A stretch of DNA of 64,000 nucleotides from Candidatus Shapirobacteria bacterium (GCA_041659325.1 JBAZYN010000002.1:140906-204905); one strand, 5' to 3'. Positions 9,690 to 44,764 are shown, counted from the first letter of the stretch. Made by a program: numbers and translations. The notes: generated by a model from the letters alone, not told the origin.

Positions 9690-9692
9690 CCT

Positions 9693-22242: not shown

Positions 22243-22659
22243 TTAATCCCTCTCGGCTTTGCCGCTTCTCCCTTTGACAAGGGAGAGATTTAAAATGTTT
22301 TTAACTTGATTAATTCGGAATAGAATTTGATCGTTAGTAAAGCGAATAGTGTTTATTCCTATCTGTTTTAGAAATTTATCTCTGGATTGATCGTAACCTA
22401 TTTTTTTATCATGGGAATTACCATCAATTTCAATGGCCAAATTTAATTCTGAACAATAGAAGTCAATAACAAATCGATTAATGGGTTTTTGTCTTAAAAA
22501 AGTAAAACCGGTTTTTTTATTTCTTAGTAATTCTCTCCAAATTTTTTCTTCGGCTTCTGTTGGATTGTTTCTGTTTTTTCTTGACAAACCCCTTAACTCT
22601 TTTAAGTAATTAATACTTCCATGTAGTGGGTTTAACGCTTCGATTACAACTTTTTTCAT
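22243..22659 (-). CDS. DUF559 (Vsr-like) endonuclease-fold protein
   Basis: FVIDFYCSELNLAIEIDGNSHD...IRFTNDQI is the DUF559 pattern. The gene is bracketed by inverted copies of the palindromic element. Confidence 0.65.
   Translation of the reverse strand: MKKVVIEALNPLHGSINYLKELRGLSRKNRNNPTEAEEKIWRELLRNKKTGFTFLRQKPINRFVIDFYCSELNLAIEIDGNSHDKKIGYDQSRDKFLKQIGINTIRFTNDQILFRINQVKNILNLSLVKGRSGKAERD
22245..22292. repeat. GC-rich palindromic element (P1), overlapping the 3' end of the DUF559 gene
   Basis: aatccctctcggctttgccgcttCTCCCTTTGACAAGGGAGAGattt. Confidence 0.75.
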
Positions 22660-23130: not shown

Positions 23131-25134
23131 ATGGTTAAGGAAAAATCTTTGGTTGATAAAATAAAAAAACTGATAGGGGTGGGTGAAGGGAAAAAAGCCG
23201 ACGGGCAGCAAAAAAAGGATGACAAGAAGAGTGGGAAAAATTTGGAAGATTTGGGAATTTCTAAGGAGGTATTGGATAAGTTGCCGCCGGGAGTAAGAAT
23301 AAAGCGAATTGAAATCGGGCCAAAACAGATTTTGAGATGGATGTTATATTTGGTTTTGGCTTTTTGGCTGTTTTCGGCGATATTTCAGATTTTGAATCCG
23401 GAAGAGATTGTAAAAGCTCCCCTGTCGGAGGCGGTGGCGGCAATAAAAAAGGGTGAGGCGGAGGAAATAACGGTGGTAGATAATGAAATTTTGGTAAAAC
23501 TTAAACAGACTGATTCGGAAATAAAAGACGGGGCAATCAGCAGGGTGTTGGTGGTATCGAAGGAACCCGGTGCTTCGGCGGTGGAAATGTTGCAAAGGGA
23601 GGGAGTAGATATTTCACAGGTCAAAATACAAATAGAAAACCAAAAAGGGTGGAAGCTTTTGGGGGAAATATTTGGATTACTTTTGACGGTGGGTTTACCG
23701 CTGATTTTGATTTTTTGGCTTTTTTCTAGACAAGCCGGGGGAGGAGCGGGCGGGGTTTTTGGATTTGGAAAGTCAACCGCCAAACTTTTTATAAAAGGAA
23801 AACAAAATTTGACGTTTAAAGATGTGGCAGGGGTGGAAGAAGCAAAAAAAGATTTGGAAGAAGTGGTGGATTTTCTTAAACATCCGGAGAAATATTTGAA
23901 AATGGGAGCCAGAGCACCAAAAGGAGTTTTGCTAGTAGGGCCATCAGGAGTCGGGAAGACGCTTTTGGCCAAGGCGGTGGCGGGTGAAGCGAACGTACCA
24001 TTTTACTCAATGGCGGGCTCGGAATTTATGGAGATGTTGGTTGGGGTGGGAGCATCCAGGGTGCGCGATTTGTTTGGGACGGCGAAAAAAGCCGGTAAGG
24101 CGATTATTTTTATTGATGAAATTGATGCGATTGGCCGGGCCAGAGGAGGCTTGGAGGGGGGACACGGAGAGAGAGAGCAGACCTTGAACCAAATTTTGGT
24201 AGAGATGGATGGATTTGAGGCAAATACGGCCGTGGTGGTTTTGGCGGCTACAAATCGAGGAGATCTGTTGGACCCGGCACTATTGAGGCCGGGAAGATTT
24301 GACAGAAGAGTAATATTGGAAATGCCGGATATTGAGGCAAGAAAAGAAATTATAAAAATACACGCAAGAAAAAAGCCCTTTGTTGATGAAATAGATTGGG
24401 ATAGGGTGGCAAGAAGGACGGTTGGTTTTAGTGGAGCGGATTTGGAAAATATGTTAAATGAATCAGCAATTAAGGCGGCCAGAGAAAACAAAGAAAAAAT
24501 TGACATGGGAGATATTGAAGAAGCGGCATTGAAGGTAAAATTGGGGTCAGAAAAAAGAAGGGCACAGACCGATGAAGATAAAAAAATGACGGCTTATCAT
24601 GAGGCCGGACATGCAATTGTTAACTATGTGGAGGAGCTGGACCCGGTTCACAGGATTTCGATAGTCTCACGAGGGATGGCGTTGGGATTTACCCTGATTC
24701 CGCCAAAGAAGGATATAGTTCACGAAACAAAATCGAGATTAGTAAAATTAATGGCAATGGCAATGGGGGGGCGGGCAGCAGAAGAGCTGACTTTTGGAGA
24801 TATTACCACCGGGGCATCTTCAGACATCTCTCATGCGACCAATATTGCCAGGAATATGGTGATTGAATGGGGAATGTCGGATTTGGGGCCGGTGAGCCTT
24901 GGCCCACTGGTGGATGCAAATGATTATGGGAAAATGTGGATGGAACCATCCAAAATTTCGGACGGGATGCAGACAAAGGTGGATGAGGAGATTAATAAAC
25001 TGATAACTACGGCCTATGAGAGGGCAAAAAAGATTTTGAGTGGTAAGAAAGAGAAGCTTGAGTCACTCGCTAAAGTATTGGTGGAAAAAGAGAGTTTAAA
25101 CCAGGATGAATTTGAGGATTTTATGAAGAGATAG
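23131..25134 (+). CDS. ftsH: ATP-dependent zinc metalloprotease FtsH (with an unusually long basic N-terminal extension before TM1)
   Basis: Walker A GPSGVGKTLLAKAVAGEA, Walker B IIFIDEIDA, SRH region and HEAGHA zinc motif. The true start could be downstream of 23131. Confidence 0.9.
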   Translation: MVKEKSLVDKIKKLIGVGEGKKADGQQKKDDKKSGKNLEDLGISKEVLDKLPPGVRIKRIEIGPKQILRWMLYLVLAFWLFSAIFQILNPEEIVKAPLSEAVAAIKKGEAEEITVVDNEILVKLKQTDSEIKDGAISRVLVVSKEPGASAVEMLQREGVDISQVKIQIENQKGWKLLGEIFGLLLTVGLPLILIFWLFSRQAGGGAGGVFGFGKSTAKLFIKGKQNLTFKDVAGVEEAKKDLEEVVDFLKHPEKYLKMGARAPKGVLLVGPSGVGKTLLAKAVAGEANVPFYSMAGSEFMEMLVGVGASRVRDLFGTAKKAGKAIIFIDEIDAIGRARGGLEGGHGEREQTLNQILVEMDGFEANTAVVVLAATNRGDLLDPALLRPGRFDRRVILEMPDIEARKEIIKIHARKKPFVDEIDWDRVARRTVGFSGADLENMLNESAIKAARENKEKIDMGDIEEAALKVKLGSEKRRAQTDEDKKMTAYHEAGHAIVNYVEELDPVHRISIVSRGMALGFTLIPPKKDIVHETKSRLVKLMAMAMGGRAAEELTFGDITTGASSDISHATNIARNMVIEWGMSDLGPVSLGPLVDANDYGKMWMEPSKISDGMQTKVDEEINKLITTAYERAKKILSGKKEKLESLAKVLVEKESLNQDEFEDFMKR

Positions 25135-25708: not shown

Positions 25709-27406
25709 TTAGGTGGTCGATTCTTCAAGATTGATTATTCGCTGAAGAATGGCGAGAGAGCCGAGGTAAACCGGCTCAGCGCCGTCGAGGCGGAGATGAT
25801 GGTTGCCAAGATTTTTGGCCTTTGAATAGGGAGTGTCCGAGGCGTAGTTGATTATACCGACATCAAAGGGAGCATTGTTGAGATCGATTATGGTGTTTTT
25901 GGGCGTTTGCTGATCGTAGGTGGCTTCGGTGATGGCATTTAAATATGGGCCTGATTCCATCTCGATAACAGTTAAATTGTTTTCGGAATATTTTTGGAGG
26001 AGAGCTTCGTTTTCCAAGAAGGTTCCCAGGACGGAGACGGATTTTTGATTGGTAAGAATGGAGCCCTGGTTGTTGGTAAAGGGAAAGAAAGAATTAAAAC
26101 AGTTTTTGAACATATAAGAATTTTGGGTATGCTCATCAAAAACCATGCGGGGGATTTGAATGTCGCCAACTTCGCTGTTTAGGACAGCGGCTTTGCCGAG
26201 GATATAGACTCCGTTTATACGATTGACATTTTCCAGAATTTCGCTCAAAACGTGGTAAGCGGCAAAACCTAGGGGGTAATCAATGTTGAAGATAATGGCC
26301 GGGGAATCGGCTAGTTTTGAGGGTTTGGTGATTTTCAGGCGATTGTCGAGATGGGGTGATTTGAGGAGATTTTTTACTGGAAAGATTTGGGTATTGATGT
26401 CGAGAAAATGGGAGCTTTTTATGGTGATGACGCCAAGTTTTTCCTGATATTTTAGATAATCTTTGTTGAATTCAGGCAGGGAGAGATAGAATTTTGAGGC
26501 AAAGTACAAAAAGTCATTTGGGTCGATAAAGTACTGGTGGTTTTTTATTTGATCCCAATATTTGTAGAGTTCGGGGAGGTCCTTCTTTAGAGAGTCTAGG
26601 ATGAGATTTTTGTTTTTTAGGACAAAGCCTGTAAAGAGATTTATGATGCTATGGGTGTTGCTAGAGATGAAATAAATTTTTTGCCGGGATATGTGAAATT
26701 TCGGAGAAACGGTGGTAGCAACGTTTTTCCACCATTTTTGGGTGGTTTTGGCATAGTCAACCCAGGACCCGGCCAGAAGCTGGATGCGAAGGTTGAGGAT
26801 ATTTTTGTAAATTCTTTTGAGGCGGATAGGCCATTTTGGGCCTAAGGCCTTGACGAAACTTTGCCAGTCTGAAGTAGAGATATTGATGTTTTCCAAAAGA
26901 TGGTTGTTTTTTAGATCTTTTTTTAAAGAGAGATAAGTTTTGTATTTGGAGTGAAGGATGGTGTGGAGCTTGTTCCATTCGGTTTGGTAGGCGATAAGAA
27001 GATTAGTAAGATCATCAACGTCGGAGATGGAGGCGGCAAAGGAGGCAAAAATGCGACTGTTGGGGTTGAAATGAGTGGTGCGGCGGCGGCCGGGGGTGTA
27101 AATTTTTTGCCAGGAATCAACGTTGGGGAAGCCGGCGTTTTTGAAAACCCCCGGGGTTTGGCCGACTATAACTTTTCGAGAACGGTCTATTTCTTCCGGC
27201 AGGCGGAAGACTGAGTAGACAAAAGCGGCGGTATCAAAAATTTGGGGGTCTTCGCCGTTTGGGTGAAGTATGGGCCTCATTTTTAGCTGAGAGTTGGATA
27301 GAGAGTTGATGGTGATTTCGAGAGTGCCTTTGAGGGCGGAACGGTAAGAGCGGACATGGAGGTCGATGGCGTCGATGCCCGGAGTGATGGAAACGGGATT
27401 GTTCAT
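25709..27406 (-). CDS. large hypothetical protein
   Basis: Start placed at the internal Met (MNNPVSITPG) to avoid a ~100-nt overlap with the divergent gene. No recognisable motif. Confidence 0.45.
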   Translation of the reverse strand: MNNPVSITPGIDAIDLHVRSYRSALKGTLEITINSLSNSQLKMRPILHPNGEDPQIFDTAAFVYSVFRLPEEIDRSRKVIVGQTPGVFKNAGFPNVDSWQKIYTPGRRRTTHFNPNSRIFASFAASISDVDDLTNLLIAYQTEWNKLHTILHSKYKTYLSLKKDLKNNHLLENINISTSDWQSFVKALGPKWPIRLKRIYKNILNLRIQLLAGSWVDYAKTTQKWWKNVATTVSPKFHISRQKIYFISSNTHSIINLFTGFVLKNKNLILDSLKKDLPELYKYWDQIKNHQYFIDPNDFLYFASKFYLSLPEFNKDYLKYQEKLGVITIKSSHFLDINTQIFPVKNLLKSPHLDNRLKITKPSKLADSPAIIFNIDYPLGFAAYHVLSEILENVNRINGVYILGKAAVLNSEVGDIQIPRMVFDEHTQNSYMFKNCFNSFFPFTNNQGSILTNQKSVSVLGTFLENEALLQKYSENNLTVIEMESGPYLNAITEATYDQQTPKNTIIDLNNAPFDVGIINYASDTPYSKAKNLGNHHLRLDGAEPVYLGSLAILQRIINLEESTT

Positions 27407-27468
27407 AGTGTCTATATTATACAGAAACAAAATAGGGGATAGAAATTGAATAGTGTTATAATTTTGGC

Positions 27469-29700
27469 ATGATAGAAAAGATCCCTGATTTATACAGAGA
27501 AAAAGCCTTTTGGGGGACAGATATTGGTGATCAGCAGAGAATGCAGCAGATAGATGGGGTGGCACAAAGGATTAATAATGCTTTAAATCTACAAGGGGGG
27601 GTAGTGGCGAGGAGGAGGGATGCAGAGCTGATAAGCGTGGTAAATGGTTTGGCGGCGCCAGGGGAGTGGAGGTGTGATACAGCCCAAGGATTAGTTGAGG
27701 CAAGCAGAGATCCCCAGCGAACAGTAAACAGGGATCTGGCGGAGAGGCGTTTGGATATTTTGGCGGATGCGGCATATATTGCCATAAAATATGGAGATAA
27801 TGATGGATTGAGGACGGCGTTGGAAGAAGGCTCGGTTGAGAAAATTGAGGATCAGCTGCCGAGACCATTGAAGGGAATTGGAGAAAGGGTGAGAAATTTA
27901 GAAATTCATAATTTAGATATCAGGGCAATACTGGATAAATTGGATAGTCGAGGAAGAGGTTTGAAGGCGGCGGGTGAGGTCGGAAAAAAACAATTGGCTT
28001 TAAATTTGGGAGAGGCGATTGTGAAGTTATCGAATTTGGAAGACTTGGACGTAAGGAGTGATGAAGAAATGATGAGGGTGTCGGCTTATTTGGGGGCAGA
28101 AGCAGAGGCGATGGGGGGGGGTGTGGTAGGAGGTAATATTGCAGATCAGGTGGCGGAAGGGGTGGGGAGGGCGATGGGAGATAGGGTGAGAGGCGGAGAG
28201 CCTATGGTTGTTCCAAGAGATGAGGCTGAAGAAGATTATTTTAGAGACTTGGCAGCTTATCAAAAAGCACAGGGTGAATTGCAAGAGGCAGTAAGAGAAG
28301 TGTCTTTAAGAGAGCTTTTAGATTCATTTTTGGGAATTTCAGCTCCTAGAGAAAGGGGTCCGCAGATGTGGGAATATAAACCTCCTGAATGGATAAAGCC
28401 CATTTCGGTTGAGGACTGGAGAAAGCTTTTGGGGATTACGGAAAAGTTTTTCGTGGCAGTTTATAACAAGAGAAATGATTCTGAATATGGTACTTCTGTA
28501 GAAATGGTTGGTAAGAAGATCTTGAGTATGCAGGGATTGCCAGAGAAGACATTGAAGTATTTATTTGAACACAGGGCATTGAAGTTGAATCTGGTATGCG
28601 GAGAAATTATGAGAGATCTAATGGTGCCCATGGAAACTTCTCCGGTTGAAGTTCCCAAACAAAACCGCGACGGCAGTTATTATTATGCAACTGAAACAAG
28701 CCGGGTTTATGTATTTTCGTCGGAACCCAACGGAGATTATTCGAGGAGTGTTCAGAGGCTTGTTGATGATGAGGTTGCTTACAAAAAGGGTATGGCGGCT
28801 AACTTGTTTGGCAATAGCGCTTTTGGTTTTAGAAGTCTCGAATCAGCAGAGTTGGCAGTGGCAACAGCAATGAATATTATGGAAATGGGCGGGGTTTTTT
28901 CACTGGCAGATACGAAACGGATATTGGGCTGGGAGTCTGATGCTGTACGGGTAATACAGAGGCCGGAAACGAAATTTCATGCAAAATTAGGAAAAGAGTT
29001 GTGGGGGGGTCCGTGGGGAGAATATCTAATGGCAGTGGCGGGTGGAAACAGAGCAGCTATGCAAAGCGAAGCGGAGAGGTTAGGTATTATTCCAAGACTT
29101 CTTGCAGGATCCTTTTTTGATCAAAAGGTGAAGACAGAAGGAGGTGTTATGGTGAAGATGGGAGAGGCCCTATATCAAAGAAGAAGGGTGGTTTTGAATG
29201 ACGTGGATAAAGATATATATTTTGACTGGAGAAAAGATCAAATCAAGGCGGCGGGGGGGATGTTTTTATATATGACAGGAAAAGCACCACTTGAATTTAG
29301 GACTATTAATGAAGTTGATAATGTGACAACGAAATGGAGGGAGGAGTTATTTAACGATACAAGAGCGTTACGTGAGAATGGAACGTCCGTTGTTACAACT
29401 GAATTAGTAGCAATGGCGATAGGCGGGTCCACTGGAGTTTGGCCTTTTGAAGGACCTTTTTTAAGGATGACTCAGCCCGGACCTGATTTAACAAACGACT
29501 ATTTGTTGGGTGGTTCAGAGATTACTCGTTTGGTAGCTGGGACAAATATTCTAGAGAGAGAAAGGCTGAGACGCTTTTTTGGGATTGATAAATCAAGAAT
29601 GGGGATATTAAATCGGAGAGTAGCCGGGTATAGAATGGCAAATGAGGCCGGGCAATCTGGAATAAAGAAGGGGGTGGCCAGGTGGTTAGGTAGAAAGTAG
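27469..29700 (+). CDS. large hypothetical protein (743 aa, soluble, acidic)
   Basis: Long ORF with no recognisable motif. Lies between the two T4SS loci. Confidence 0.45.
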   Translation: MIEKIPDLYREKAFWGTDIGDQQRMQQIDGVAQRINNALNLQGGVVARRRDAELISVVNGLAAPGEWRCDTAQGLVEASRDPQRTVNRDLAERRLDILADAAYIAIKYGDNDGLRTALEEGSVEKIEDQLPRPLKGIGERVRNLEIHNLDIRAILDKLDSRGRGLKAAGEVGKKQLALNLGEAIVKLSNLEDLDVRSDEEMMRVSAYLGAEAEAMGGGVVGGNIADQVAEGVGRAMGDRVRGGEPMVVPRDEAEEDYFRDLAAYQKAQGELQEAVREVSLRELLDSFLGISAPRERGPQMWEYKPPEWIKPISVEDWRKLLGITEKFFVAVYNKRNDSEYGTSVEMVGKKILSMQGLPEKTLKYLFEHRALKLNLVCGEIMRDLMVPMETSPVEVPKQNRDGSYYYATETSRVYVFSSEPNGDYSRSVQRLVDDEVAYKKGMAANLFGNSAFGFRSLESAELAVATAMNIMEMGGVFSLADTKRILGWESDAVRVIQRPETKFHAKLGKELWGGPWGEYLMAVAGGNRAAMQSEAERLGIIPRLLAGSFFDQKVKTEGGVMVKMGEALYQRRRVVLNDVDKDIYFDWRKDQIKAAGGMFLYMTGKAPLEFRTINEVDNVTTKWREELFNDTRALRENGTSVVTTELVAMAIGGSTGVWPFEGPFLRMTQPGPDLTNDYLLGGSEITRLVAGTNILERERLRRFFGIDKSRMGILNRRVAGYRMANEAGQSGIKKGVARWLGRK

Positions 29701-29710
29701 ATAGAGTTTT

Positions 29711-31330
29711 TTATTTTGCGACATTTCTGATTGCATCCGAAGCCGCCTGAGCGCTTCCTGGGCCGAGAGTTCCTTCAATTAATCCGCCGACAATTCCTCT
29801 TGAAGCACCGGTCTTAGGATCTGCAATACTAGTGGCAGCTTTATTACCTATAAAGGATTTTCCGAATCTTGCAATTGGGTTTTTGCTTAAGTTTGTGCTT
29901 TCACCAATAGCCACTCCCCACGGAGATGGTTTAATCATAAAAATATACTGAGGGATCATATCGGGGAGCTTGGAAAGAAGCATAAGGCTAGCAAGACCAA
30001 CAGCGACGGGTAAAAGACCACCGGAGGGGATGGTGGCAAGATTTACCATGAATCCCACTAGTCCACCTGATTCTAAAAGTTGAGGCTTCCAGATACCGTA
30101 TTCGTGTCTGGTATTGTCAATGATTATGTTGGCTAAAACTAAAAACAATAGGGAAATAGGGAAAACGGAAATGTTGGCGACTAGTTGGAGTAACCAGGTG
30201 GAAAATCCTGTTTTCACATTGGGAAAAGCACCTATGCCGATGACAAAAGGAGCGGTAATAATTTGGAAAAGAATGGTGACGTAACATTTGACTAAGCCGA
30301 AATAAAATTTGACTTGCCAGATCATGACGGCAATGACGATAACCAAAAGCATGAAAACAGCTCCGATGGTTCCTCCTGTTAAGGCTCCTGCCGGTCCGGC
30401 TAATCCACCAACTATGGCTCCGATTACGCCACCCAGGGCGGCCAGAGAGGCCTTGGGGGCCATGCGGAGCATGAGGTCGCCGACAGTGGCCAATCCCGCT
30501 TCGGAAAAAAGCTTGAAAGTCCAACCTTCCTTGAGACCCAGGGCTTTTAGAATACCGCCAAAAAAATTTTGGTCAATTAGATTGTCGTCTAGATTAGTTT
30601 TTCCTGTAGCCTGATAAAGAACAGCGAGACCGAAAGACTGGAGGAAGATTGAAAGGTCGATTATTAGGCCGGCAATGGCATAGGAGAAAGTAACCAGGAT
30701 GAGAGTAATTATTACCTGGGGAATGGCGCTTTGAATGGTAATTACGGCTTGGGGGCTGATTTTGACCCGGAGCATGATCATAATGCCGATAATCACAAAT
30801 AGGAATGAGGAAATTAAATAGACAACATTTCGGAAACCTCGCCAAAGTGGGAGAATGGGCTGAAGACCATTGAAACCGATACCGACTCCCTGAGCATAGG
30901 CCGGTTTTCCCAAGAGATTATTTTTGAGCTGAGCAATATATTGAATTCCGGATGCCTGGGGGATATAGAGGGAAGCAGTCATGCGGTTTATGGAACCGAC
31001 CATGCCACCCGGGATATAACTGGTTTCCTCGCCTTTGAAAATGCCTTCCGGGATTTTATCGACCATACCTTCGATTACTCCGGTTGAAATACTGCCGAGG
31101 CTTTCCATGGTCCAACGTTCATTGTTGCCGCCGGCATCACGAGCATCCTGTTTTTTTTCGAGATAGGAGACTTCTTGGGCTTTGATTTTGGTAGTTAAAA
31201 TGGAGCTGCCAATGAGAAGAAAGGCGATTATAAGGAATTTTAGGACGGGAGAAATTTTGGGGATTATCCGATGCTCGCGACGGTTTAGCCAATTAAGGGT
31301 GGCTTTGATGTTCATAAAATATTTTAGCAT
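29711..31330 (-). CDS. VirB6/TrbL-like polytopic T4SS membrane protein
   Basis: At least 8 TM helices including Gly-rich AALGGVIGAIVGGLAGPAGALTGGTIGAV, and an N-terminal periplasmic region. Sits downstream of the pilin array and the secreted protein. Confidence 0.5.
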   Translation of the reverse strand: MLKYFMNIKATLNWLNRREHRIIPKISPVLKFLIIAFLLIGSSILTTKIKAQEVSYLEKKQDARDAGGNNERWTMESLGSISTGVIEGMVDKIPEGIFKGEETSYIPGGMVGSINRMTASLYIPQASGIQYIAQLKNNLLGKPAYAQGVGIGFNGLQPILPLWRGFRNVVYLISSFLFVIIGIMIMLRVKISPQAVITIQSAIPQVIITLILVTFSYAIAGLIIDLSIFLQSFGLAVLYQATGKTNLDDNLIDQNFFGGILKALGLKEGWTFKLFSEAGLATVGDLMLRMAPKASLAALGGVIGAIVGGLAGPAGALTGGTIGAVFMLLVIVIAVMIWQVKFYFGLVKCYVTILFQIITAPFVIGIGAFPNVKTGFSTWLLQLVANISVFPISLLFLVLANIIIDNTRHEYGIWKPQLLESGGLVGFMVNLATIPSGGLLPVAVGLASLMLLSKLPDMIPQYIFMIKPSPWGVAIGESTNLSKNPIARFGKSFIGNKAATSIADPKTGASRGIVGGLIEGTLGPGSAQAASDAIRNVAK

Positions 31331-31334
31331 GAAA

Positions 31335-33566
31335 TTATAAAGGTTGATCTGTATTTACTTTTTTCCAATCTTCAGGTTTCATGTAAAGATCGAAGAGGTT
31401 GCGGGCAGCGACGTCTTTCTGGCCAAAATCGCGGGTGATTTCCTCTTTACCGGTACTGGAATTAGGGGATTTATCCAATTCATATTTTTCCTGATCTTCG
31501 GCAGGAAGGCCGAGCTTGAGGTAACCAGTATCGGTTTTCAGATTGTCGACCAAGCTAGCGGGGAGAATGAGGGTGACCTCCTTTTCGCCGGAAAAAGTTT
31601 TTGCCTCATTTTCGACCACGCCGAAAAATTGGAGAATTTTTATCCAGAGGGTAAGGGGAGTGGGCTTGTCAACAGAAGGATCGCCGGGGCGATATTTGGT
31701 ACAAACCCATTCACTGGGTTCGGTTTGAAAAGAGGCATGATCTTCCTGAGGATTAAAAATTCCAAGAGCGTATGAAACCTGAAGGCTTGAGAGAACAGAA
31801 CCAAGGGGGATGGTCCGATCTTTTTTGGTTTCTTCGCCGGTTTCATCGTCTTTGATTAAAACTTGGGTGTTTATCGAACCACGGGGAACTATGGGCATCT
31901 GCCGGTAAAGGGTATCATAAGCGCTGTCGGAGAGGGGGGAGAAACTTTTTCCAAAGATTGATTGATAACCGCCGCCTTCGAATTGGTGAAGCATGATGGC
32001 AACGACGTCCCCAGGAAGAGGGATTTTTTTGAGGGTATAATTTACCGGCTTTTCGTAAGAGGTATTTATACCCCTTTTGTAATAATTCCAACCGACTTCA
32101 CATACCGTGACGGGACGGCAGGAGGCATCTGAGGGTTTGGGAAAAAGGTTTTTGGGGCCGTCGGGGCAACTCCAGGCAAGTTGTTCGTCGGTGGAAATAA
32201 CATCGTGGAGACCATCCAGGGAGCGGCAGGCATCTTCGATAAAGATTCCTTTGAGGTATAACTTATCGTCTTCGGTCATGTATCGGACAGTAGCATTGTC
32301 CCCCTGGTTGCCGTAGTTTAGAAATCTATCGTTGAGCTGTTCGGGGGTGGCGTTGAAATCCGGAGGCTGTTGTTTGGCGAGATGGATAGAGCTATTTCTA
32401 GGGCTTGGGTTAGTCTTCCTTTCATTTTTGATTTGTTCGATATCGTTTACTTCCTGTCTTTGATAGGTATTTCCGGCGCCGGAAACGCCGACACTGGCAA
32501 CTTTGGGGTTAATAGTTTCACTGGCAGAAACTTTGTAGGTACATGTGGAAAAATTTATTTCGTTAGAATTTGAATAAAATTTAGATGCCTTATCTTCGGG
32601 GTGTCGGGGGTCGGCTTCGTTTGGGACGCCTCGGACGGCCTCTTTTAGGTCAATGGGGGGGGGATAACCCCAGGATGTATTGGGATTGTAGATGGTAGCA
32701 TCGGGATCGATAGCACAGTTCTCGATGATGTCGTCGGGGCAATTGGCCTTGAGAGCATCGGTAACTTTGGGATTGGTGAGCCGCCAACTACCGGCATAGT
32801 TTCCGGGGGAGAAGGTAAAGAGGGTATAGGCAAGGATATCGCCTTGGCCCTGCCAGAAAGCAGTAATACCTTTACCGCAAAAGAATTTGATAAATTCGCA
32901 ATCGTCGTAAATAACTCCGCCGTTGTCGACGCCAACTTCGGTAAAAATAAACTGTTTGCCGGCAAGAGGACCCGAGCTGTAATTTTTGGCGGTATCTTCC
33001 CGATAAGGGTGATAGGAGATGATGGAAAAGCTGGGGCCGAAAGCAGCACTGGTTTTGGGGAAATTGGCGTTTTGAGGGTCCAGGGCAGGAGAGATAATTG
33101 GCCCTCTGGTCAGACAGGATTGTAATTTGGTAATAAAGCTATGGGCTCGTTCAATGGCGGCATCAAGACTGATTATGCCGCTTAAAGTTTCTCTTTCGTA
33201 ATCCTGTTCAAGTTCGTTGAAGGGTTCGATGTAGACGGTTTTGCCCGGAGCGTAAGAATTTATGACTCGGCACCAATCGTTGGCGGCTTGGGTTTGGCTG
33301 GCATCGTCGCTAAGCATTTTTTTGCCAATATTGGTCCAGTTGGCGTGGATGCGGATGACGACATTTGAGGCGGAAATATTTTCAAAGCGGGCCAAACCTT
33401 CGGGGGTTTCGGGGATGATGGTCATCCAGTTTTTGACGGCCGGATCGGCGACCCAATTGGCACTTGCTGGGTCATTGATAAGATTGATTCCAGGAGAGCC
33501 GGCGAAGGCAGGAGAGCTATTTAATAAGAAAAACAGAGTCAATAATCCGAAGAGACGTTTGAACAC
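31335..33566 (-). CDS. large secreted protein (signal peptide), possible glycoside-hydrolase-like fold
   Basis: Signal peptide MFKRLFGLLTLFFLLNSSPAFA. Co-directional and tightly spaced between the pilins and VirB6-like gene. Confidence 0.45.
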   Translation of the reverse strand: MFKRLFGLLTLFFLLNSSPAFAGSPGINLINDPASANWVADPAVKNWMTIIPETPEGLARFENISASNVVIRIHANWTNIGKKMLSDDASQTQAANDWCRVINSYAPGKTVYIEPFNELEQDYERETLSGIISLDAAIERAHSFITKLQSCLTRGPIISPALDPQNANFPKTSAAFGPSFSIISYHPYREDTAKNYSSGPLAGKQFIFTEVGVDNGGVIYDDCEFIKFFCGKGITAFWQGQGDILAYTLFTFSPGNYAGSWRLTNPKVTDALKANCPDDIIENCAIDPDATIYNPNTSWGYPPPIDLKEAVRGVPNEADPRHPEDKASKFYSNSNEINFSTCTYKVSASETINPKVASVGVSGAGNTYQRQEVNDIEQIKNERKTNPSPRNSSIHLAKQQPPDFNATPEQLNDRFLNYGNQGDNATVRYMTEDDKLYLKGIFIEDACRSLDGLHDVISTDEQLAWSCPDGPKNLFPKPSDASCRPVTVCEVGWNYYKRGINTSYEKPVNYTLKKIPLPGDVVAIMLHQFEGGGYQSIFGKSFSPLSDSAYDTLYRQMPIVPRGSINTQVLIKDDETGEETKKDRTIPLGSVLSSLQVSYALGIFNPQEDHASFQTEPSEWVCTKYRPGDPSVDKPTPLTLWIKILQFFGVVENEAKTFSGEKEVTLILPASLVDNLKTDTGYLKLGLPAEDQEKYELDKSPNSSTGKEEITRDFGQKDVAARNLFDLYMKPEDWKKVNTDQPL

Positions 33567-33588: not shown

Positions 33589-33975
33589 TTAGCCGGGGAT
33601 GAGGAACTTGGTGATGGCGACTCCGGTAAATTTTTCAATAAGACTGAGAATGAGCCAGGAACCAATGACACCAACCAGACCGAGGATGGCCATGGTAAGA
33701 GTGGAGGAAGCGGAGGCGATTTTTTTGGAATCGCCGCCGGAGAAAAGATAATTGTAGCCGCCGGAGATAAACATGTAGAAAAAAGCCAGACCGGCGAAGA
33801 AAACGATTACCTGGAGGACATTGTAGAAGAGACACTCTAGCCCTTGAATAGTGGCGACATCAGTGAAGTCTCCGCTACCAACACAGCGGGCGTCTTTGGT
33901 GGCCCATTCCTGAGTAGTTTGGGCGAGAATAGTGGAAGGATGGAATAAAAATAACATGAGAAACGCGATTAACAT
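33589..33975 (-). CDS. VirB2/TrbC-like T4SS pilin paralog 1
   Basis: Signal/TM1, then the loop GGDSKK, then TM2 (TLTMAILGLVGVIGSWLIL). The two-helix architecture is shared by all six tandem paralogs. Confidence 0.6.
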   Translation of the reverse strand: MLIAFLMLFLFHPSTILAQTTQEWATKDARCVGSGDFTDVATIQGLECLFYNVLQVIVFFAGLAFFYMFISGGYNYLFSGGDSKKIASASSTLTMAILGLVGVIGSWLILSLIEKFTGVAITKFLIPG

Positions 33976-34066
33976 ATGTGATTATAACATTTTGGTGGGG
34001 GGCAGGGAAAACAAAAACCTCCCCCGATTTTGTCGGGAGAGGTTTTGAATTTCAACTAAGAGCAAA

Positions 34067-34450
34067 TTACCAGGCTTTGATTTCGAGGTTGAGGATATCG
34101 ACACCAAAGATGACGTTGATTAGTCTCATGATGGCGAAAGCGGCAAAGACGATAGCCAGACCAATCAGACCATTGGTGATTTGGGCACGGGCAGCGGCGA
34201 CTTTTTTCTCGTCACCCTCGGAAGTTACCCACTTGAGACCACCCATGATAAGAATAAAGAAGAAAACTAAAGCAACTACAAGCATGACCAGGCTGATGGC
34301 TCCGGAGACAATTCTGCCGACGGTGAGAGCCTGAAGATCGCCCCACTGAGATCCTTCTTGGGGGCCGACAGTAATTTTACCGTCGTCTGCAGCGTATAAG
34401 GGAGCGGCAATCACGGCATAGGTGATTTTGTTTTTTATTTTGGTGAACAT
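34067..34450 (-). CDS. VirB2/TrbC-like T4SS pilin paralog 2
   Basis: TM1 LVMLVVALVFFFILIMGG, then SEGDEKK, then TM2 GLIGLAIVFAAFAIM. Confidence 0.6.
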   Translation of the reverse strand: MFTKIKNKITYAVIAAPLYAADDGKITVGPQEGSQWGDLQALTVGRIVSGAISLVMLVVALVFFFILIMGGLKWVTSEGDEKKVAAARAQITNGLIGLAIVFAAFAIMRLINVIFGVDILNLEIKAW

Positions 34451-34519: not shown

Positions 34520-34888
34520 TCAAAGAGTTGGTACGGGAAGAGATAAAGTTTGAAGAGAAGTGATGCCGAAAACAATACCAATAACTTTTAAGATGGCAAA
34601 AACCGAGAAGGAGGCAATTAACCCGACTAGGGCATAGGTGAGTTGTTTTTGGGCTTCTTCGATTTTTTTAGGGTCACCGCTTGAGTCAATGTAGTGGTAG
34701 GAACCCATTAAGAAATGCCAAATAAAATAGAGAACGGCGACAAGCATAAAAACAGAAAGTATCCCCCGGACAATGCGGTCGAAATAACCTATAGGGTCAC
34801 TGACCTGAACTGAGCTGCCGCAGTCGGGATTTAGGAGCTTGTTGCAAATGACGGCATAGGCCGGTTTGACGAGTTGAAAATTTATCAT
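34520..34888 (-). CDS. VirB2/TrbC-like T4SS pilin paralog 3
   Basis: TM1 VFMLVAVLYFIWHFLMG, then SSGDPKK, then TM2 ALVGLIASFSVFAIL. Confidence 0.6.
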   Translation of the reverse strand: MINFQLVKPAYAVICNKLLNPDCGSSVQVSDPIGYFDRIVRGILSVFMLVAVLYFIWHFLMGSYHYIDSSGDPKKIEEAQKQLTYALVGLIASFSVFAILKVIGIVFGITSLQTLSLPVPTL

Positions 34889-34893: not shown

Positions 34894-35259
34894 CTATAGA
34901 TGAAGATCGTTTAGTAACGTGTCCAGATTGAAGATGTTTTCGAGTCCTAGAATTTTGCCCAGAAGAGAGCCGAGGCCGACGGCAAAAATAACGATAGCGA
35001 TACCGAGAATGCCGTTGGTGATTTTGTGGCGAGCTTCTTCGAGTTTTTTCTCGTCGCCTTTGGAGGACATAAAGGCATAGCCGGCGAAGACGGTTTGGAT
35101 AGTAAAATAAATTAAGGCAACAACGGAAAGCATGCCAAGAACAACGCTGACGGTATTTTCGAGATTAGTGGTGGCTTGGGTGCCATCCTTGGGTACTATT
35201 CCCGGGCCGACATAGGGATCGTAAGCGATGGCGAGAAGTCTAGTCATTAGGGCCATAGA
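34894..35259 (-). CDS. VirB2/TrbC-like T4SS pilin paralog 4
   Basis: Start taken at the internal MALMTRLL, because the longest ORF to 35394 would overlap paralog 5 by ~155 nt. TM1, then SKGDEKK, then TM2. Confidence 0.5.
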   Translation of the reverse strand, partial: SMALMTRLLAIAYDPYVGPGIVPKDGTQATTNLENTVSVVLGMLSVVALIYFTIQTVFAGYAFMSSKGDEKKLEEARHKITNGILGIAIVIFAVGLGSLLGKILGLENIFNLDTLLNDLHL

Positions 35260-35674
35260 CGTTTGGAGTAAGAATGGGTATGCCGGTAATACGCTCAATA
35301 ACACCGGCGAGGGTGAAGGCAGAGGCAATGATGATAATCCCCAGGATACTTTGCCAGATTTTTGCCCAGGCAGCTTCGGTTTTTTTGGAATCACCGCCGG
35401 CGGTGATATATTCGTAGCCGGCCAATATTACCTGGATGATAAAGAAAAGACCGCCGATGGTGCCGGCAAGTTTAAAGATGTTGCCAATTAAAAGAAAAAT
35501 ACCGCCTTCTTCAAAGTAAGGGTTGCCGTCTATGGGGGGCTTGATGGTGCCGATGATGGGGCTGCCACCGCCTCCGGGGTCAACGGCGGCTTGGACGATT
35601 GAGGGTTTAAAAAAGTGGATTAAGGATTTCAAGTCCGGTAATAACTTGTATGATTTGGATGATGGAATAGGCAA
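35240..35674 (-). CDS. VirB2/TrbC-like T4SS pilin paralog 5
   Basis: TM1 GGLFFIIQVILAGY, then AGGDSKK, then TM2 ILGIIIIASAFTLAGVI. Start uncertain, since the longest ORF overlaps paralog 6 by 68 nt. Confidence 0.5.
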   Translation of the reverse strand: MPIPSSKSYKLLPDLKSLIHFFKPSIVQAAVDPGGGGSPIIGTIKPPIDGNPYFEEGGIFLLIGNIFKLAGTIGGLFFIIQVILAGYEYITAGGDSKKTEAAWAKIWQSILGIIIIASAFTLAGVIERITGIPILTPNVYGPND

Positions 35675-35939
35675 AAACGACTACTCCGAATCCGATAAAC
35701 GAGCTAGTTATGGCTTGTTGCCCCTGGGCAGCTTTTTTTGGGTCACCATTACCTGCACCAATTATATAGGTAACACCGCCGAAAATCAAAAGGCCGAGGA
35801 GGACGGTTCCGGCGATAGTGATGGAGTTTTTCAGAATGATATTGACAATTACGCTAAAAGTCGGATAGCTTCCGCCGAGGGTATTGCCCCCACCAAGGGG
35901 GGTATCTTTTATGTCTACAGCAGCTAGCAAGCGATTCAT
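35607..35939 (-). CDS. VirB2/TrbC-like T4SS pilin paralog 6
   Basis: TM1 TIAGTVLLGLLIFGGVTYIIG, then GNGDPKK, then TM2 FIGFGVVVFAYSIIQII. Confidence 0.6.
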   Translation of the reverse strand: MNRLLAAVDIKDTPLGGGNTLGGSYPTFSVIVNIILKNSITIAGTVLLGLLIFGGVTYIIGAGNGDPKKAAQGQQAITSSFIGFGVVVFAYSIIQIIQVITGLEILNPLF

Positions 35940-36072: not shown

Positions 36073-36882
36073 ATGAGAAAATATATTTGTTTTGGTGTTT
36101 TTGCTCCGGTGTTGGCGCTGAGTTTGTTTTTGGCTTTCGGGTGTTTACCGATACAGGCGGCATCCGGTAACGGATATTTACTGGAGTCGGTGCAATTACA
36201 GGAAAACTCGGGATTTGGATTTTTGAATTTTGGGAAAACAATGGTTCGGATGGCTATAGATAAGGGAATCGAACCCAATTTGATTGTGATGCTGCTGTTG
36301 CTACCGTTGGTGGCGACATTGGTGTCGGTACTGCATTATGTGTTTGGACTTTCAGGGTATGGGATTTTTATGCCGACAATGATTGCAGTGACATTTTTGG
36401 CAACAGGGATTATAGGGGGACTATTGTTGTTTGCGATGATTTTGATGATATCAATTTTTGGAGGACTGGCTTTGCGGAAACTAAAACTTCACTTTTGGCC
36501 GGCGAGATCGATTAATTTATTGTTGATTTCGGTGGGGACCTTTGGGCTGATGCTGATTTCTTCTTCGGTACAGATAATCGATATCAGTAATATTTCGATA
36601 TTTCCGGTACTATTTATGATAATGCTGTGTGAGGAATTTGTGCGGACACAATTGGTGAAGAGTAGAAATGAAGCCCAGAGATTAGCAGTTGGGACGTTGG
36701 TGCTGGCAATCATTGGGGCGGTGACGATGAACGTTCCGGAAGTGCAAAGATTGGTAATTTTGAACCCCGAATGGGTAATACTAATAGTACTGGTAGTAAA
36801 TTTGGGGGTAGGAAACTACACCGGAATTAGACTGTCTGAGGTAAAAAGATTTAAAAAGGCGATCAGAAAGAAAAATGTTTAA
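36073..36882 (+). CDS. 7-TM membrane protein (7TM module of ATP-grasp peptide-modification systems)
   Basis: Seven predicted TM helices. Its stop overlaps the start of the following ATP-grasp gene by 8 nt. Confidence 0.5.
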   Translation: MRKYICFGVFAPVLALSLFLAFGCLPIQAASGNGYLLESVQLQENSGFGFLNFGKTMVRMAIDKGIEPNLIVMLLLLPLVATLVSVLHYVFGLSGYGIFMPTMIAVTFLATGIIGGLLLFAMILMISIFGGLALRKLKLHFWPARSINLLLISVGTFGLMLISSSVQIIDISNISIFPVLFMIMLCEEFVRTQLVKSRNEAQRLAVGTLVLAIIGAVTMNVPEVQRLVILNPEWVILIVLVVNLGVGNYTGIRLSEVKRFKKAIRKKNV

Positions 36883-38212
36883 TTTGAAAGAGTACAAGCA
36901 GTTTTTGACAAAAAATGAGAGAAATAAGGTGTATTTGAGAAAGAATACGGCCGGGGCGAGAATGGTTGCCGATAGCAAGCTAAAAACAAAGAGGCTTCTA
37001 ATGAAATCGGGGGTAGGGGTACCGAAGCTGATTGCCAGGTTTAGAAATCAAGAAGAACTGACGGCGTTTAAATGGGAAAAGCTAGAAGGTAATTTTGTGA
37101 TTAAGCCGGTTTCCGGGTATGGAGGAGAGGGGATTCTGATAATCCGGAGAAGGGGTAAGTGGGCGGGAGATTGGCAAAAGATGAACGGAGAGATGGTTAA
37201 TACTAAAGATATAAAACGACATTGCCAGGAGATTTTGGGAGGACGGTACAGCTTGTACGGGATGCCTGATTATGTGTTGGTCGAGGAGAGAGTAAAGATT
37301 CATCCATTATTTTTGTCAATTACCAGGTCGGGGACGCCGGATGTGAGGGTGATTGTTTACAATAGGGTACCAGTGATGGCGATGCTGCGGGTGCCGACTG
37401 ATAAAAGCGGAGGGAAGGCAAATCTGCAACAAGGGGCGATAGGCCTCGGGATTGATTTGGCCACCGGGATTACAACATTCGGGATTGAGGGCAAGGGGGG
37501 GCAGATTGAAAAGATTTATGACTATGGGAAAAAACGGAAAAGAAAAGTTAACGGGATTAAGATCCCTTTTTGGAGAGAGATTTTGGAGACGGCGATAAAA
37601 GTACAAATGTCGATTGAGGGACTTGGATTTATAGGAGTGGATATCGTGCTTGATAAGGAAAAAGGGCCGATGATTTTGGAGGTAAATGCTAGACCGGGAC
37701 TGTCAATTCAGTTGTGTAATAAGGCAGGGCTGAAATCGAGAATTGAAAAGATTGAAGGGATGGATGTCCGGAGTGTGGATCACGGAATAACTTTGGCAAA
37801 GTATTTGTTTGGAGAGAGTTTTTTTGAAAAAGTAGAAGAAAAGGAGAAAGCAAAAACGGTAGGACCTTTGGAAATGATTAAAATTAAGTTGGGGAAGGGC
37901 AAAAAGCTAGTAAAAGAAGTCAGAGCGAAGATTGATACAGGAGCATTCAGAAGCTCGATTGACAGAAGTTTGGCGGAAAGTTTGGGATTATTGTCTGACG
38001 AAAGGGTGTTGTATTATCGGCATTATCGATCATCTTTGGGAAAGCATAAAGACAGGCCGGTGATTGGGTTGACTTTTTGGCTTAAAGGGAAAAAGGTGGT
38101 AACGGCGGTGAATGTAGCCGACAGACATAAATTGAGAACGAAATTTCTGTTGGGGAGAAAAGATCTGGAGGGTTTTTTGGTTTCGGCAAAAAAACAAAAT
38201 GAAAAACAATAA
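36875..38212 (+). CDS. RimK-related ATP-grasp ligase fused to a C-terminal retropepsin-like protease (RimB/DUF785-type, DTGA active site)
   Basis: ATP-grasp core FVIKPVSGYGGEGILII ... GFIGVDIVLDKEKGPMILEVNARPG. The C-terminal 110 aa contain AKIDTGAFRSSID (D-T-G-A) and GRKDLEGFLV, like the stand-alone protease encoded beside rimK in other bacteria. Confidence 0.6.
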   Translation: MFNLKEYKQFLTKNERNKVYLRKNTAGARMVADSKLKTKRLLMKSGVGVPKLIARFRNQEELTAFKWEKLEGNFVIKPVSGYGGEGILIIRRRGKWAGDWQKMNGEMVNTKDIKRHCQEILGGRYSLYGMPDYVLVEERVKIHPLFLSITRSGTPDVRVIVYNRVPVMAMLRVPTDKSGGKANLQQGAIGLGIDLATGITTFGIEGKGGQIEKIYDYGKKRKRKVNGIKIPFWREILETAIKVQMSIEGLGFIGVDIVLDKEKGPMILEVNARPGLSIQLCNKAGLKSRIEKIEGMDVRSVDHGITLAKYLFGESFFEKVEEKEKAKTVGPLEMIKIKLGKGKKLVKEVRAKIDTGAFRSSIDRSLAESLGLLSDERVLYYRHYRSSLGKHKDRPVIGLTFWLKGKKVVTAVNVADRHKLRTKFLLGRKDLEGFLVSAKKQNEKQ

Positions 38213-38312
38213 CTCAAATAAACGAAATAATTTTCAATATAATTTTTTTCGCTGTGAATGTGTTGCCACGTTCAACGCTCTAAAAATTACATTTTCAAAT
38301 TATTTTTAATAT

Positions 38313-39437
38313 ATGAAAAATAAAAAAATAGCAATATTTTTTGGAGGAAAGATCACCCATCACCTGAGGCTGCTGAGGATGGCGGCGAGGAAACTCCGGG
38401 TACAGCTGGATCTGGTTTCTTATAATAGGGTTTGTTTTGAAGCGGGTAAGGGGGTATATATAAGAGGAGATAAGGCCAGGATGAACGAAACCTGGGAAGT
38501 TTCGGAATATGACGTGTTGTTTTTCAGAACGACGGGGAAACACTGGGAAGAAGTAAGTTTAATTTTGGATGCTGTGAAAGGGAAGGACATAACGGTGGTT
38601 GACCCTTTGGTAAAAAATGGGAGGCCGTCTGATGCCTGTAAGGCTTATCAAATGCTGGAGTTGGCTAAGGCAGGCATAGGGGTGCCAAAAACAATATACG
38701 GAAGTTTGTGGTATCTGTATGAGATGATGAAAAATAAGACACAGTTTTCTGATCAGCATTTTTTTTCCTCCGGTGAATGTGGTGCCACGTTCAATGTTGT
38801 AAAAAAAACACTGATGACGAAAGCTGATTTGGATCAGAAAAATTTATTGGCTTCGGACTTTGCGTTGGATTTTAATTTTCCGATAATTTTGAAGGGGAGC
38901 GGGGGGGATAGGGGGAGCCGGGTGTTTAAAATTGATAACCTGGAAGAGATGGAAAAGATGGTGCGGGCATTGAGGAAATCCGAGACGGTAGAGGGTAAGC
39001 GATATATGGTTCAAAAATTTATCCCGAACAGCGGTGATTATCGGCTGCTGATTTTGGGCGAGAAAGTGCTGGGAGTGATGAAAAGAAGCAGCCAAAGTAT
39101 TGAGGAGTTTCGTAATAATTATTCGGTGGGGGGAAAGGTGGAAGTGGCGGATTTGCCGGAGTCAATAAAAAAGATGGCAGTGAAGGCGGCAAAAGTTTGT
39201 GGATTGATGGTGGCGGGGGTGGATGTGATGGAAAAGCCAAAATCTAATAGTCTTAAAGTCTTAAAATCTGAAAGTCTGAAAGTCAAAAGTCGAAGTTTTG
39301 AGGATGGGGAAATGAGTGGGGATTCTAATGATTATGTGGTGCTGGAAGTGAATAAGGGGCCACAGTTTAGGGGATTTATGGAAGCGACGGGAATTGATGT
39401 ACCGAAAGAAATCATTAAATTTTTAATAAGTTTATAA
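38313..39437 (+). CDS. RimK-like ATP-grasp ligase (paralog 2) with an in-frame repeat insert
   Basis: IILKGSGGDRGSRVF, LLILGEKVLGVMKR and YVVLEVNKGPQF. An AGTCNNAA array is inserted at 39241-39294, giving KSNSLKVLKSESLKVKSRS. Confidence 0.65.
   Translation: MKNKKIAIFFGGKITHHLRLLRMAARKLRVQLDLVSYNRVCFEAGKGVYIRGDKARMNETWEVSEYDVLFFRTTGKHWEEVSLILDAVKGKDITVVDPLVKNGRPSDACKAYQMLELAKAGIGVPKTIYGSLWYLYEMMKNKTQFSDQHFFSSGECGATFNVVKKTLMTKADLDQKNLLASDFALDFNFPIILKGSGGDRGSRVFKIDNLEEMEKMVRALRKSETVEGKRYMVQKFIPNSGDYRLLILGEKVLGVMKRSSQSIEEFRNNYSVGGKVEVADLPESIKKMAVKAAKVCGLMVAGVDVMEKPKSNSLKVLKSESLKVKSRSFEDGEMSGDSNDYVVLEVNKGPQFRGFMEATGIDVPKEIIKFLISL
39241..39294. repeat. AGTCNNAA array (A2, in-frame in RimK-like paralog 2)
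   Basis: aatctaat agtcttaa agtcttaa aatctgaa agtctgaa agtcaaa agtcgaag. Confidence 0.85.
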
Positions 39438-39520
39438 GTTAATGTGTATAATCAAATTTTTGCAGTGCTTCCGCCAGAGGCGGACTCCGCTCAGCTTCGC
39501 ACGCACTTTGCTTGACATGA

Positions 39521-44337: not shown

Positions 44338-44411
44338 GGGTGATTAGCTCAGTTGGTTAGAGCACCGTCCTGATAAGACGGGGGTCAATAGTTCGAGTCT
44401 ATTATCACCCA
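44338..44411 (+). tRNA. tRNA-Ile (anticodon GAT)
   Basis: Acceptor GGGTGAT/ATCACCC, D-loop TAGCTCAGTTGGTTAGAGC, anticodon stem CCGTC/GACGG with loop cTGATaa, and T-arm GGTTCGAGTCT. Confidence 0.85.
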
Positions 44412-44764
44412 CATATGGGCGAGAGTTATTGTGAACAAGTAAAGGGTGGGGGTATGAGGCTATGTTACAATTAAGCTATGAGTAGGTTTACTGTATTGAA
44501 GGTGTTTTGTTTCTTTGCGGCGGTGGGATTGATTGCTTTTGGAAGTGTGGAAAATGTAGGGCGAACGATAAAATTTGCTTTTGAAAAGTTTAATCGGTAA
44601 GTGAAATTTGTCTTATTGACGAATTAACCGTATTTAGGTAGAATAGGAACACTTGCGGATGTTGACGAATAAGAAATATAAGTTCAAAAATTTTTGAGGA
44701 AGTAGTATTTTTGAACTCATAGGGCCGCAAGATGCGGCTCTTTTTATTTTTGGACTAAGGCCTT

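Follow-up and report, generated by a model that had tools for sequence, protein, structure and literature searches.

A 64,000-nucleotide stretch of DNA from a Candidatus Shapirobacteria bacterium (GCA_041659325.1 JBAZYN010000002.1:140906-204905), hereafter the window, carries genes of a type IV secretion system (T4SS) in two separate places, and we analyzed four large open reading frames (ORFs) that belong to or adjoin the second of these, between positions 25,709 and 33,566. These ORFs are referred to here as A, B, C, and D in order of position. The interpretation that we consider probable is that the T4SS of this organism is split in two, with locus II forming the pilus and translocon half of the system, composed of pilins, a secreted protein with a predicted glycosidase domain (D), and a multi-spanning membrane protein (C), together with a linked gene (B) and an unrelated one (A). 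The pilins, D, and C lie approximately 23 kb from virB4. Candidatus Shapirobacteria belong to the Microgenomatia within the Patescibacteria and are uncultured, ultrasmall organisms.

All four ORFs are present where an initial annotation of this DNA had placed them, and each has homologues, which shows that they are genuine genes, not ORFs arisen by chance. B, C, and D are identical to database records WC841_04050 to 04060 on a 335-kb contig of a Candidatus Shapirobacteria metagenome-assembled genome (MAG). Contigs encoding homologues of D, B, and A were fetched, and all window proteins were mapped onto them. More than 15 Shapirobacteria-type loci share one gene order: an ATP-grasp cluster, 7TM_transglut, six pilins, a position occupied by one secreted protein (the D-slot), C, a position with a single large gene in the opposite orientation (the B-slot), DUF6909, FtsH, RNHCP, and DUF4012. 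The co-directional succession of pilins, secreted protein, and polytopic membrane protein that the initial annotation had described, and had suggested comparing with related genomes, is kept across these loci. Identity to the window proteins was 64-77% for FtsH, 57-69% for A, and 37-51% for C, and for B it ranged in the fetched loci from undetectable to 39%, the closest database homologue (P0020) reaching 43%. From these values the B-slot and the D-slot are variable positions in an otherwise stable backbone.

The pilus half of the assignment comes from an array of six VirB2-like pilin genes on the minus strand. Its first gene, pilin 6 (35607..35939), matches the T4SS_pilin family PF18895 with an E value of 8e-8 and 32.7 bits and has an ortholog in every related locus, and it is followed by pilin 5 (35240..35674; E 5.4e-9, 36.4 bits), pilin 4 (34894..35394; E 4.7e-5, 23.8 bits), pilin 3 (34520..34888; E 6.2e-7), pilin 2 (34067..34450; E 5.1e-6), and pilin 1 (33589..33975; E 5.7e-6), which ends 22 nt upstream of D. 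Five of the six score between 26.7 and 36.4 bits, and pilin 4 falls under the PF18895 gathering score of 26.6 bits; it also has a weak match to TrbC/VirB2 (PF04956), and its orthologs, of about 120 amino acids, are present in related arrays. The ORF of pilin 5 overlaps pilin 6, so its start is probably internal, as is probably that of pilin 4.

Between pilin 2, the last gene ahead of it, and pilin 1 lies a strong hairpin resembling an intrinsic terminator (34014..34046, minus strand) with a 14-bp G+C-rich stem followed by a T-run, which splits the array into five genes and one. A G+C-rich hairpin and T-run occupy the equivalent intergenic position in all ten loci tested (the window, L001, L002, L008-L012, L018, and L021), with a different sequence in each, which suggests a conserved attenuator within the array. 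By analogy with pilin operons, the cluster is probably expressed as five abundant pilins, with pilin 1, D, and C forming a unit of lower expression. The conserved hairpin makes it unlikely that a single operon runs from all six pilins, as had been supposed on the strength of 3-5-nt spacers; such a spacer does separate D from C (4 nt, or 19 nt with the NCBI start of C), and elsewhere the distances are 22 nt between the last pilin and D and 5 to 91 nt, or an overlap, between pilins. Divergent from the pilin array is the ATP-grasp cluster (36073-40564, plus strand), which consists of 7TM_transglut, an ATPgrasp_ST protein with a Zn-protease-like tail, and two RimK-type ATP-grasp genes. It is syntenic in every locus whose DNA extends beyond the array, and it may be connected with the modification of pilins or of other proteins at the surface.

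The gene that follows the pilins, D (31335..33566, minus strand), encodes a protein of 743 amino acids from a GTG start, with a signal peptide visible in its sequence and 12 cysteines. A word-indexed search returned 18 homologues, and those carrying a taxon name were all from Shapirobacteria or unclassified Patescibacteria. D had no Pfam or NCBIfam match at E values up to 1, and phmmer and profile searches against PDB sequences gave nothing relevant. Residues R72, H74, W77, N117-E118, H186, Y188, E210, and W261 are nevertheless invariant across 17 sequences sharing 28-66% identity, a set typical of clan GH-A retaining glycosidases such as the GH5-type enzymes. In an AlphaFold2 model, pLDDT was about 80-97 over most of residues 40-280, and this region (32727..33449) was predicted to adopt the (beta/alpha)8 barrel fold of clan GH-A. 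The top 50 Foldseek matches in the PDB were all glycoside hydrolases and nearly all members of clan GH-A (E about 1e-4). Within the model N117-E118 follow the strand formed by residues 110-114 and E210 lies within strand 205-211, which, judged by strand position, are the places expected of the acid/base and the nucleophile. On account of the invariant residues, the structural matches, and the modelled placement of the catalytic residues, we conclude that the N-terminal domain of D is a predicted glycosidase of a new sequence family. The suggestion that this protein could be a hydrolase was thus right for its N-terminal domain.

The window protein lacks the SLT (PF01464), CHAP, and M23 domains by which a VirB1-type lytic transglycosylase or related wall hydrolase would be recognized. 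The (beta/alpha)8 retaining-glycosidase fold is known for activity on beta-glucans, mannans, and xylans, and to our knowledge it is not used by T4SS hydrolases. Two points weigh against a role for D in opening the cell wall: we know of no classical peptidoglycan hydrolase family in clan GH-A, and the C-terminal 450 amino acids of D were poorly modelled. Other occupants of the D-slot give the protein a broader context. All of these are secreted and Cys-rich, and the shorter ones share with D a core corresponding to about residues 400-740. Four D homologues (P0006, P0010, P0011, and P0017) carry a C-terminal SLT domain, and D-slot proteins end in SLT in L014 and L018 and in SpoIID in L002 and L024. 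We read the D-slot as encoding a conserved secreted component of the T4SS or pilus that looks to have repeatedly gained glycan-cleaving domains and that would take the functional place of VirB1. In a survey of Patescibacteria T4SS, VirB1 was mostly not found in these genomes, and it was proposed that other glycosidases may substitute for it (PMC12102498).

The initial annotation had also offered a pilus tip or adhesin. In this alternative D would be chiefly a VirB5-like tip protein, and its barrel a carbohydrate-binding module that grips the host surface without acting as an enzyme. D is indeed secreted, Cys-rich, and encoded directly after a pilin, in 6 of 10 other loci the D-slot core has no enzyme domain attached, and members of GH128 subgroup VII are, according to their PDB titles, sugar-binding and non-catalytic. 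All the catalytic residues of clan GH-A (R, H, N-E, H, Y, E, and W) are, however, invariant over the 17 aligned sequences, despite identities as low as 28%, and this argues for catalysis by D; relatives moreover add lytic domains (SLT and SpoIID) to the same core. We therefore regard a chiefly adhesive D as quite unlikely and retain the view of D as a secreted glycosidase.

Downstream of D, C (29711..31330, minus strand) encodes a protein of 539 amino acids, or 534 in the NCBI call, which starts from Met6. A Kyte-Doolittle scan found 9 hydrophobic segments, the first at residues 22-40 and the other 8 between residues 169 and 449. The resulting layout is a signal anchor, approximately 125 residues outside the cell, and about 8 further transmembrane (TM) segments, and the outside region contains a strongly conserved motif, GKPAYAQG...LWRGFRN. 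C has at least 628 homologues, none of them annotated or with a Pfam domain, and it follows the pilin array and the D-slot gene wherever that flank was recovered. A TM scan of the T4SS-linked genes in the window identified C as the only polytopic protein among them, and no polytopic VirB6 was found in locus I. Features expected of VirB6, TrbL, or PrgH are therefore present in C insofar as it has at least 5 TM segments and is encoded in a T4SS cluster, approximately 23 kb from virB4. The survey describes homologues of VirB6 as scarce in Microgenomatia, "suggesting extreme sequence divergence" (PMC12102498). Judging from topology and genomic context only, C is an obvious candidate for the missing VirB6 subunit.

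Sequence comparisons count against this assignment. The window protein had no Pfam match at all, VirB6/TrbL (PF04610) included, and no NCBIfam match to VirB6, a PDB profile search found nothing, and hhalign gave probabilities of 0.5% against PrgH of pCF10 and 0.1% against TrwI of R388, both in single-sequence tests. Among 36 C homologues, one reached TrbL/VirB6 (E 8.6e-4), and 8 touched DUF6861 and glycine-zipper models through composition only. The label "VirB6-like" given earlier to C can thus stand for its topology and context and cannot for membership of the family by sequence, where the results were negative or marginal. C could instead serve a different purpose in the membrane, for example as a transporter or as a platform for pilin assembly, with the real VirB6 encoded elsewhere in the genome. 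The absence of a significant profile match to TrbL/VirB6 or PrgH and the purely compositional matches would fit this, and the window, at 64 kb, is only part of a contig that measures at least 335 kb. Set against it are the constant position of C next to the pilin array, its standing as the sole polytopic protein among the T4SS-linked window genes, the one homologue that does reach TrbL, and the divergence already held responsible for the scarcity of VirB6 in Microgenomatia in that survey (PMC12102498). On balance we find this alternative unlikely and continue to treat C as the candidate VirB6 analogue.

B (27469..29700, plus strand) is convergent to C, with the two stop codons 10 nt apart, and encodes a cytosolic protein of 743 amino acids with a pI of 5.8, in which a sequence scan found no signal peptide or TM segment. 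An initial word-based search found 5 relatives, two of which (P0023 and P0024) matched residues 1-215 only, at 50-63% identity, and were unrelated over the remainder. An exhaustive profile search extended the family to 127 clusters at 50% identity, the majority of 700-910 amino acids; approximately 25-30 of these align over most of their length, and most others match only the N-terminal ~220 amino acids. The family is accordingly defined by a conserved all-helical N-terminal domain (residues 1-215; 27469..28113), which iterative hidden Markov models (HMMs) detected in 105 of 119 full-length members, and a C-terminal region of the type found in the window protein was detected in 72 of the 119. 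B can therefore no longer be called an orphan, as it had been, but the accompanying statement that it has no recognizable domains holds for Pfam: none was found in B or in any of 62 family members. The structure of B was modelled with confidence and had no PDB match.

Linkage between B and C is tight in every locus examined. The B-slot gene is always convergent to C, with a gap that ranges from an overlap to approximately 130 nt, and the pair of C and a B-family gene has been duplicated once, in L024, as a tandem unit. The L024 segment (50-9885) contains C at 1565-3223 with an 881-amino-acid gene at 3353-5998 (minus strand) and a second C at 6170-7738 with a 716-amino-acid gene at 7735-9885 (minus strand). 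Insertions occur between B and A, in the form of a BrnT/BrnA pair in L027 and of extra ORFs in L009, L012, L014, and L021, and none was seen between B and C in any locus; the A-B junction thus tolerates insertions and the B-C junction does not. The L027 insertion (1582-2116) is a BrnT/BrnA (CopG) toxin-antitoxin pair lying between the DUF6909 gene and the B-family gene.

A second feature of the family is its C-terminus. The last 25 amino acids of B-family proteins carry a mean net charge of +3.8 (n = 119) against +0.5 for 157 control ORFs (Mann-Whitney p 2e-20), where the controls are raw long ORFs from the same DNA and not curated genes, a choice that tempers the comparison. The proteins as a whole are slightly acidic, and in the model of B pLDDT is down to 56-70 in the final ~25 residues. 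Substrates of the VirB/D4 type are known for C-termini that are basic and flexible, so the tail of B is compatible with export, although as a feature that is not specific it is suggestive only. These properties make B a candidate substrate or adaptor of the T4SS, which is the weakest step in our interpretation. The earlier proposal that B is a substrate or effector stays open with some indirect support, from the strict linkage to C, the mosaic architecture, and the basic C-terminal tail.

Further observations speak against B as cargo. No VirD4-type coupling protein (T4CP) was seen in the 64-kb window, the occupants of the B-slot in L001 and L022 have no detectable similarity to the B family, and the B-C linkage could be gene order inherited within one lineage. 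Carried further, the last point becomes an alternative in which B and A are mere chromosomal neighbours kept in place by the conserved Shapirobacteria gene order, and B is a cytoplasmic protein peculiar to the lineage, perhaps a scaffold or an enzyme, that has no role in secretion. The whole 20-kb neighbourhood is syntenic, including the housekeeping genes FtsH, RNHCP, and DUF4012, and adjacency alone is for this reason weak evidence. B also lies on the strand opposite to the pilin, D, and C genes and lacks a signal peptide or TM segment, and the missing coupling protein fits here as well. Mere neighbourhood accounts less readily for the duplication of C and B as a unit in L024, for insertions that fall repeatedly between B and A and never between B and C, for the far faster evolution of B than of the backbone genes, and for the basic tail retained across unrelated C-terminal classes. 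We consider this alternative somewhat unlikely and continue to favor a functional link of B to the T4SS.

The joining of a conserved N-terminal domain to several unrelated C-terminal classes is also what would be expected of a polymorphic toxin, in which a delivery domain is followed by swappable toxins directed at competitors. With the stop codon of C only 10 nt away, an immunity gene would not fit downstream, no known toxin domain occurs in 62 members, and members are of similar length (700-910 amino acids), with a common detectable C-terminal region in 72 of 119. Variation in the B family looks more like rapid divergence than cassette swapping, and a polymorphic toxin is highly improbable. 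PADLOC anti-phage defence models gave no matches to the B-slot genes and A (10 proteins, E up to 0.01), and B as a defence gene or polymorphic toxin was set aside for want of PADLOC or Pfam domains and of an immunity gene. Two other ideas were rejected. The 872-amino-acid protein in the L001 slot was considered as a B homologue, and BLAST and HMM searches were negative. An inverted duplication was considered for B and D, which are both 743 amino acids long; there is no repeat between them, and the equal length is a coincidence of unrelated ORFs. No paralogues of B, C, or D were found elsewhere in the window.

A (25709..27406, minus strand) diverges from B across a 62-nt spacer and encodes 565 amino acids from an ATG, which is where its homologues start, within a frame that is open to a GTG at 27565. 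The description of A as an orphan with no recognizable domains does not survive comparison with Pfam: residues 34-558 match positions 2-534 of the 535 in the DUF6909 model (PF21850), with an E value of 9.4e-158 and 526 bits against a cut-off of 27. A is slow-evolving, at 57-69% identity where C shows 37-51%. A DUF6909 homologue with 36% identity to A is present in L020, a high-GC, Anaerolinea-labelled MAG from outside the candidate phyla radiation (CPR), where the genes next to it, in the segment 2562-18979, encode xanthine-dehydrogenase-type subunits, XdhC, a DHH/CBS protein, and an aminotransferase, and a transporter of the EamA type is encoded several genes farther along. No T4SS genes were among the ten neighbouring ORFs scanned. 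Its family membership, its slow evolution, and the xanthine-dehydrogenase-type neighbours of its relative in a non-CPR MAG make an effector or substrate role for A unlikely, contrary to what had been suggested. A is probably a backbone gene and not part of the secretion system.

The L020 neighbourhood hints at a link between A and purine or nucleotide metabolism. Motifs seen by eye in the C-terminal half of A (G-x-A-A..GD, EME, and SD) raised the idea of a PNP_UDP_1 (PNP/MTAN-like) nucleosidase, which the profiles did not bear out: there was no PF01048 match at E up to 1, a PDB profile search gave nothing, and hhalign probabilities against E. coli MtnN, DeoD, Udp, and Amn were at most 1%, with thin templates (single sequences and a four-sequence alignment). 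Together with the L020 neighbourhood, the nucleosidase idea is kept as only a lead. We found no mention of DUF6909 in the literature.

Locus I of the T4SS lies at about 2-10.7 kb in the window, ahead of dnaA and dnaN (11097-13883). It includes a PrgI/VirB3-like gene (2038-2979), a TrsD/TraC-N-like gene (3011-3721), VirB4 (3718-6231), and a gene for an M23 peptidase of 1,144 amino acids (6255-9689, plus strand), with a C-terminal M23 domain and three TM segments within residues 847-952. The last adjoins VirB4 and can be likened to a PrgK-like membrane-anchored wall hydrolase. FtsH is encoded at 23131-25134, between the two loci. Small genes of mobile type occur in the backbone region, namely a DUF559 endonuclease-like gene in the window (22243-22659, minus strand) and 23S_rRNA_IVP/bAvd in L001 (16947-17309), and suggest local insertion hot spots near the B-slot.

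Elsewhere in the window, 23S rRNA (45077-47994) and 5S rRNA (49307-49423) lie approximately 1.3 kb apart, and a LAGLIDADG_2 homing-endonuclease ORF (48075-48659; E 2.6e-42) sits in the gap between them. tRNA-Ile and tRNA-Ala (44338-44839) are located upstream of the 23S rRNA, and the window has no 16S rRNA. Dockerin type I domains occur in four large proteins (41837-44302, 55652-57937, 57957-59381, and 61259-63091), one of which also has a cohesin domain, a set that points to a surface assembly of the cellulosome kind in this CPR genome. Over the whole window GC skew stays positive (0.15-0.47), with the same sign on either side of dnaA and dnaN, and is lower where minus-strand genes lie.

A working model for locus II can be proposed from these observations. 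Five VirB2-like pilins would be followed by the terminator hairpin and then by pilin 1, D, and C, which are probably expressed together at a lower level. D would be exported by Sec and, with the Asn-Glu acid/base and the Glu nucleophile of a clan GH-A retaining glycosidase intact, would most likely cut a cell-wall or surface glycan. This may let the pilus or channel pass the cell's own wall or that of a host, the job of VirB1 elsewhere. C, a subunit that spans the membrane several times, would most likely act in the place of VirB6. B appears genetically coupled to C and not to A. The conserved N-terminal domain of B probably binds a partner that is itself conserved, and the fast-diverging remainder and basic flexible tail of the protein would fit a translocated substrate or a substrate adaptor. 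A would be present through the conserved order of the chromosome.

Patescibacteria T4SS are related to the conjugation machinery of monoderms and have six divergent VirB2-like pilins; in cultured Saccharibacteria the system is essential for growth on the host, and neither relaxases nor recognized substrates are reported for it (PMC10633639, PMC12102498, and PMC12857230). A bolder reading, which we regard as doubtful, would make the B family the first identified cargo or cargo adaptor of this essential, relaxase-less system, injected into or presented to the host bacterium, and D the founder of a new family within clan GH-A whose task is to breach the wall for the pilus. The locus offers candidates for two components described as scarce or mostly not found in Microgenomatia in PMC12102498: VirB6, in the form of C with its at least 628 members, and VirB1, in the form of D and its slot-mates (GH-A, SLT, and SpoIID). 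B, fast-evolving and T4SS-linked, is a candidate substrate that lends itself to testing. These conclusions were inferred by bioinformatics for a lineage that has not been cultured, and their practical value is therefore in generating hypotheses.

Compared with known systems, each of the three proteins combines a familiar setting with an unfamiliar sequence. Like the wall hydrolases VirB1, PrgK, and TraG of pIP501, D is a secreted, predicted glycan-cleaving enzyme encoded within a T4SS cluster, and the relatives P0006, P0010, P0011, and P0017 and the slot-mates in L014 and L018 bear a genuine SLT domain on the D backbone. Unlike those hydrolases, D itself has a catalytic domain of the (beta/alpha)8 retaining-glycosidase fold in place of SLT, CHAP, or M23. 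With clan GH-A families (GH26, GH158, GH128, GH5, GH1, GH10, and GH53) it shares an N-E pair after strand 4 and a Glu ending strand 7 in the model, and it differs from the known ones in having no Pfam match at E up to 1 and no PDB profile match. C resembles VirB6, TrbL, PrgH, and ConG as a multi-spanning inner-membrane protein with an extracytoplasmic region whose gene adjoins T4SS pilins, but at 539 amino acids it is larger than PrgH (266) and TrwI (342), has a conserved N-terminal outside domain, and shows no significant sequence relationship to them. B is like T4SS effectors, both VirB/D4 substrates and the Xanthomonas X-Tfe proteins with their XVIPCD, in lying beside T4SS genes and in having a conserved module, a variable remainder, and a basic flexible tail. 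The conserved module of B is N-terminal, whereas the XVIPCD is C-terminal, and unlike known effectors B has no recognizable toxin or enzyme domain and no T4CP in the window.

The closest comparison for the locus as a whole is the Patescibacteria T4SS, derived from the MPF-FATA type and described in Ca. Southlakia epibionticum (Wang et al. 2023, PMC10633639) and in the survey of Quinonero-Coronel et al. 2025 (PMC12102498). As in those systems, VirB4, PrgI, and TrsD lie near dnaA, there are six divergent VirB2-like pilins, no relaxase or T4CP is found nearby, and wall-hydrolase genes are associated. The present system differs in that the pilins, D, and C lie approximately 23 kb from virB4, in that C escapes the VirB6 and PrgH profiles, and in that the hydrolase beside the pilins is a predicted clan GH-A barrel and not an SLT, lysozyme, or peptidase. 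It differs also in the convergent, hypervariable gene B that accompanies C, a gene of a kind not mentioned in the parts of PMC12102498 consulted. The general Patescibacteria T4SS was already known, and this locus is a variant of it; what is new here is a pilin-linked module in Microgenomatia that has a predicted GH-A glycosidase in the hydrolase position, a candidate VirB6 analogue, an internal terminator, and the B family.

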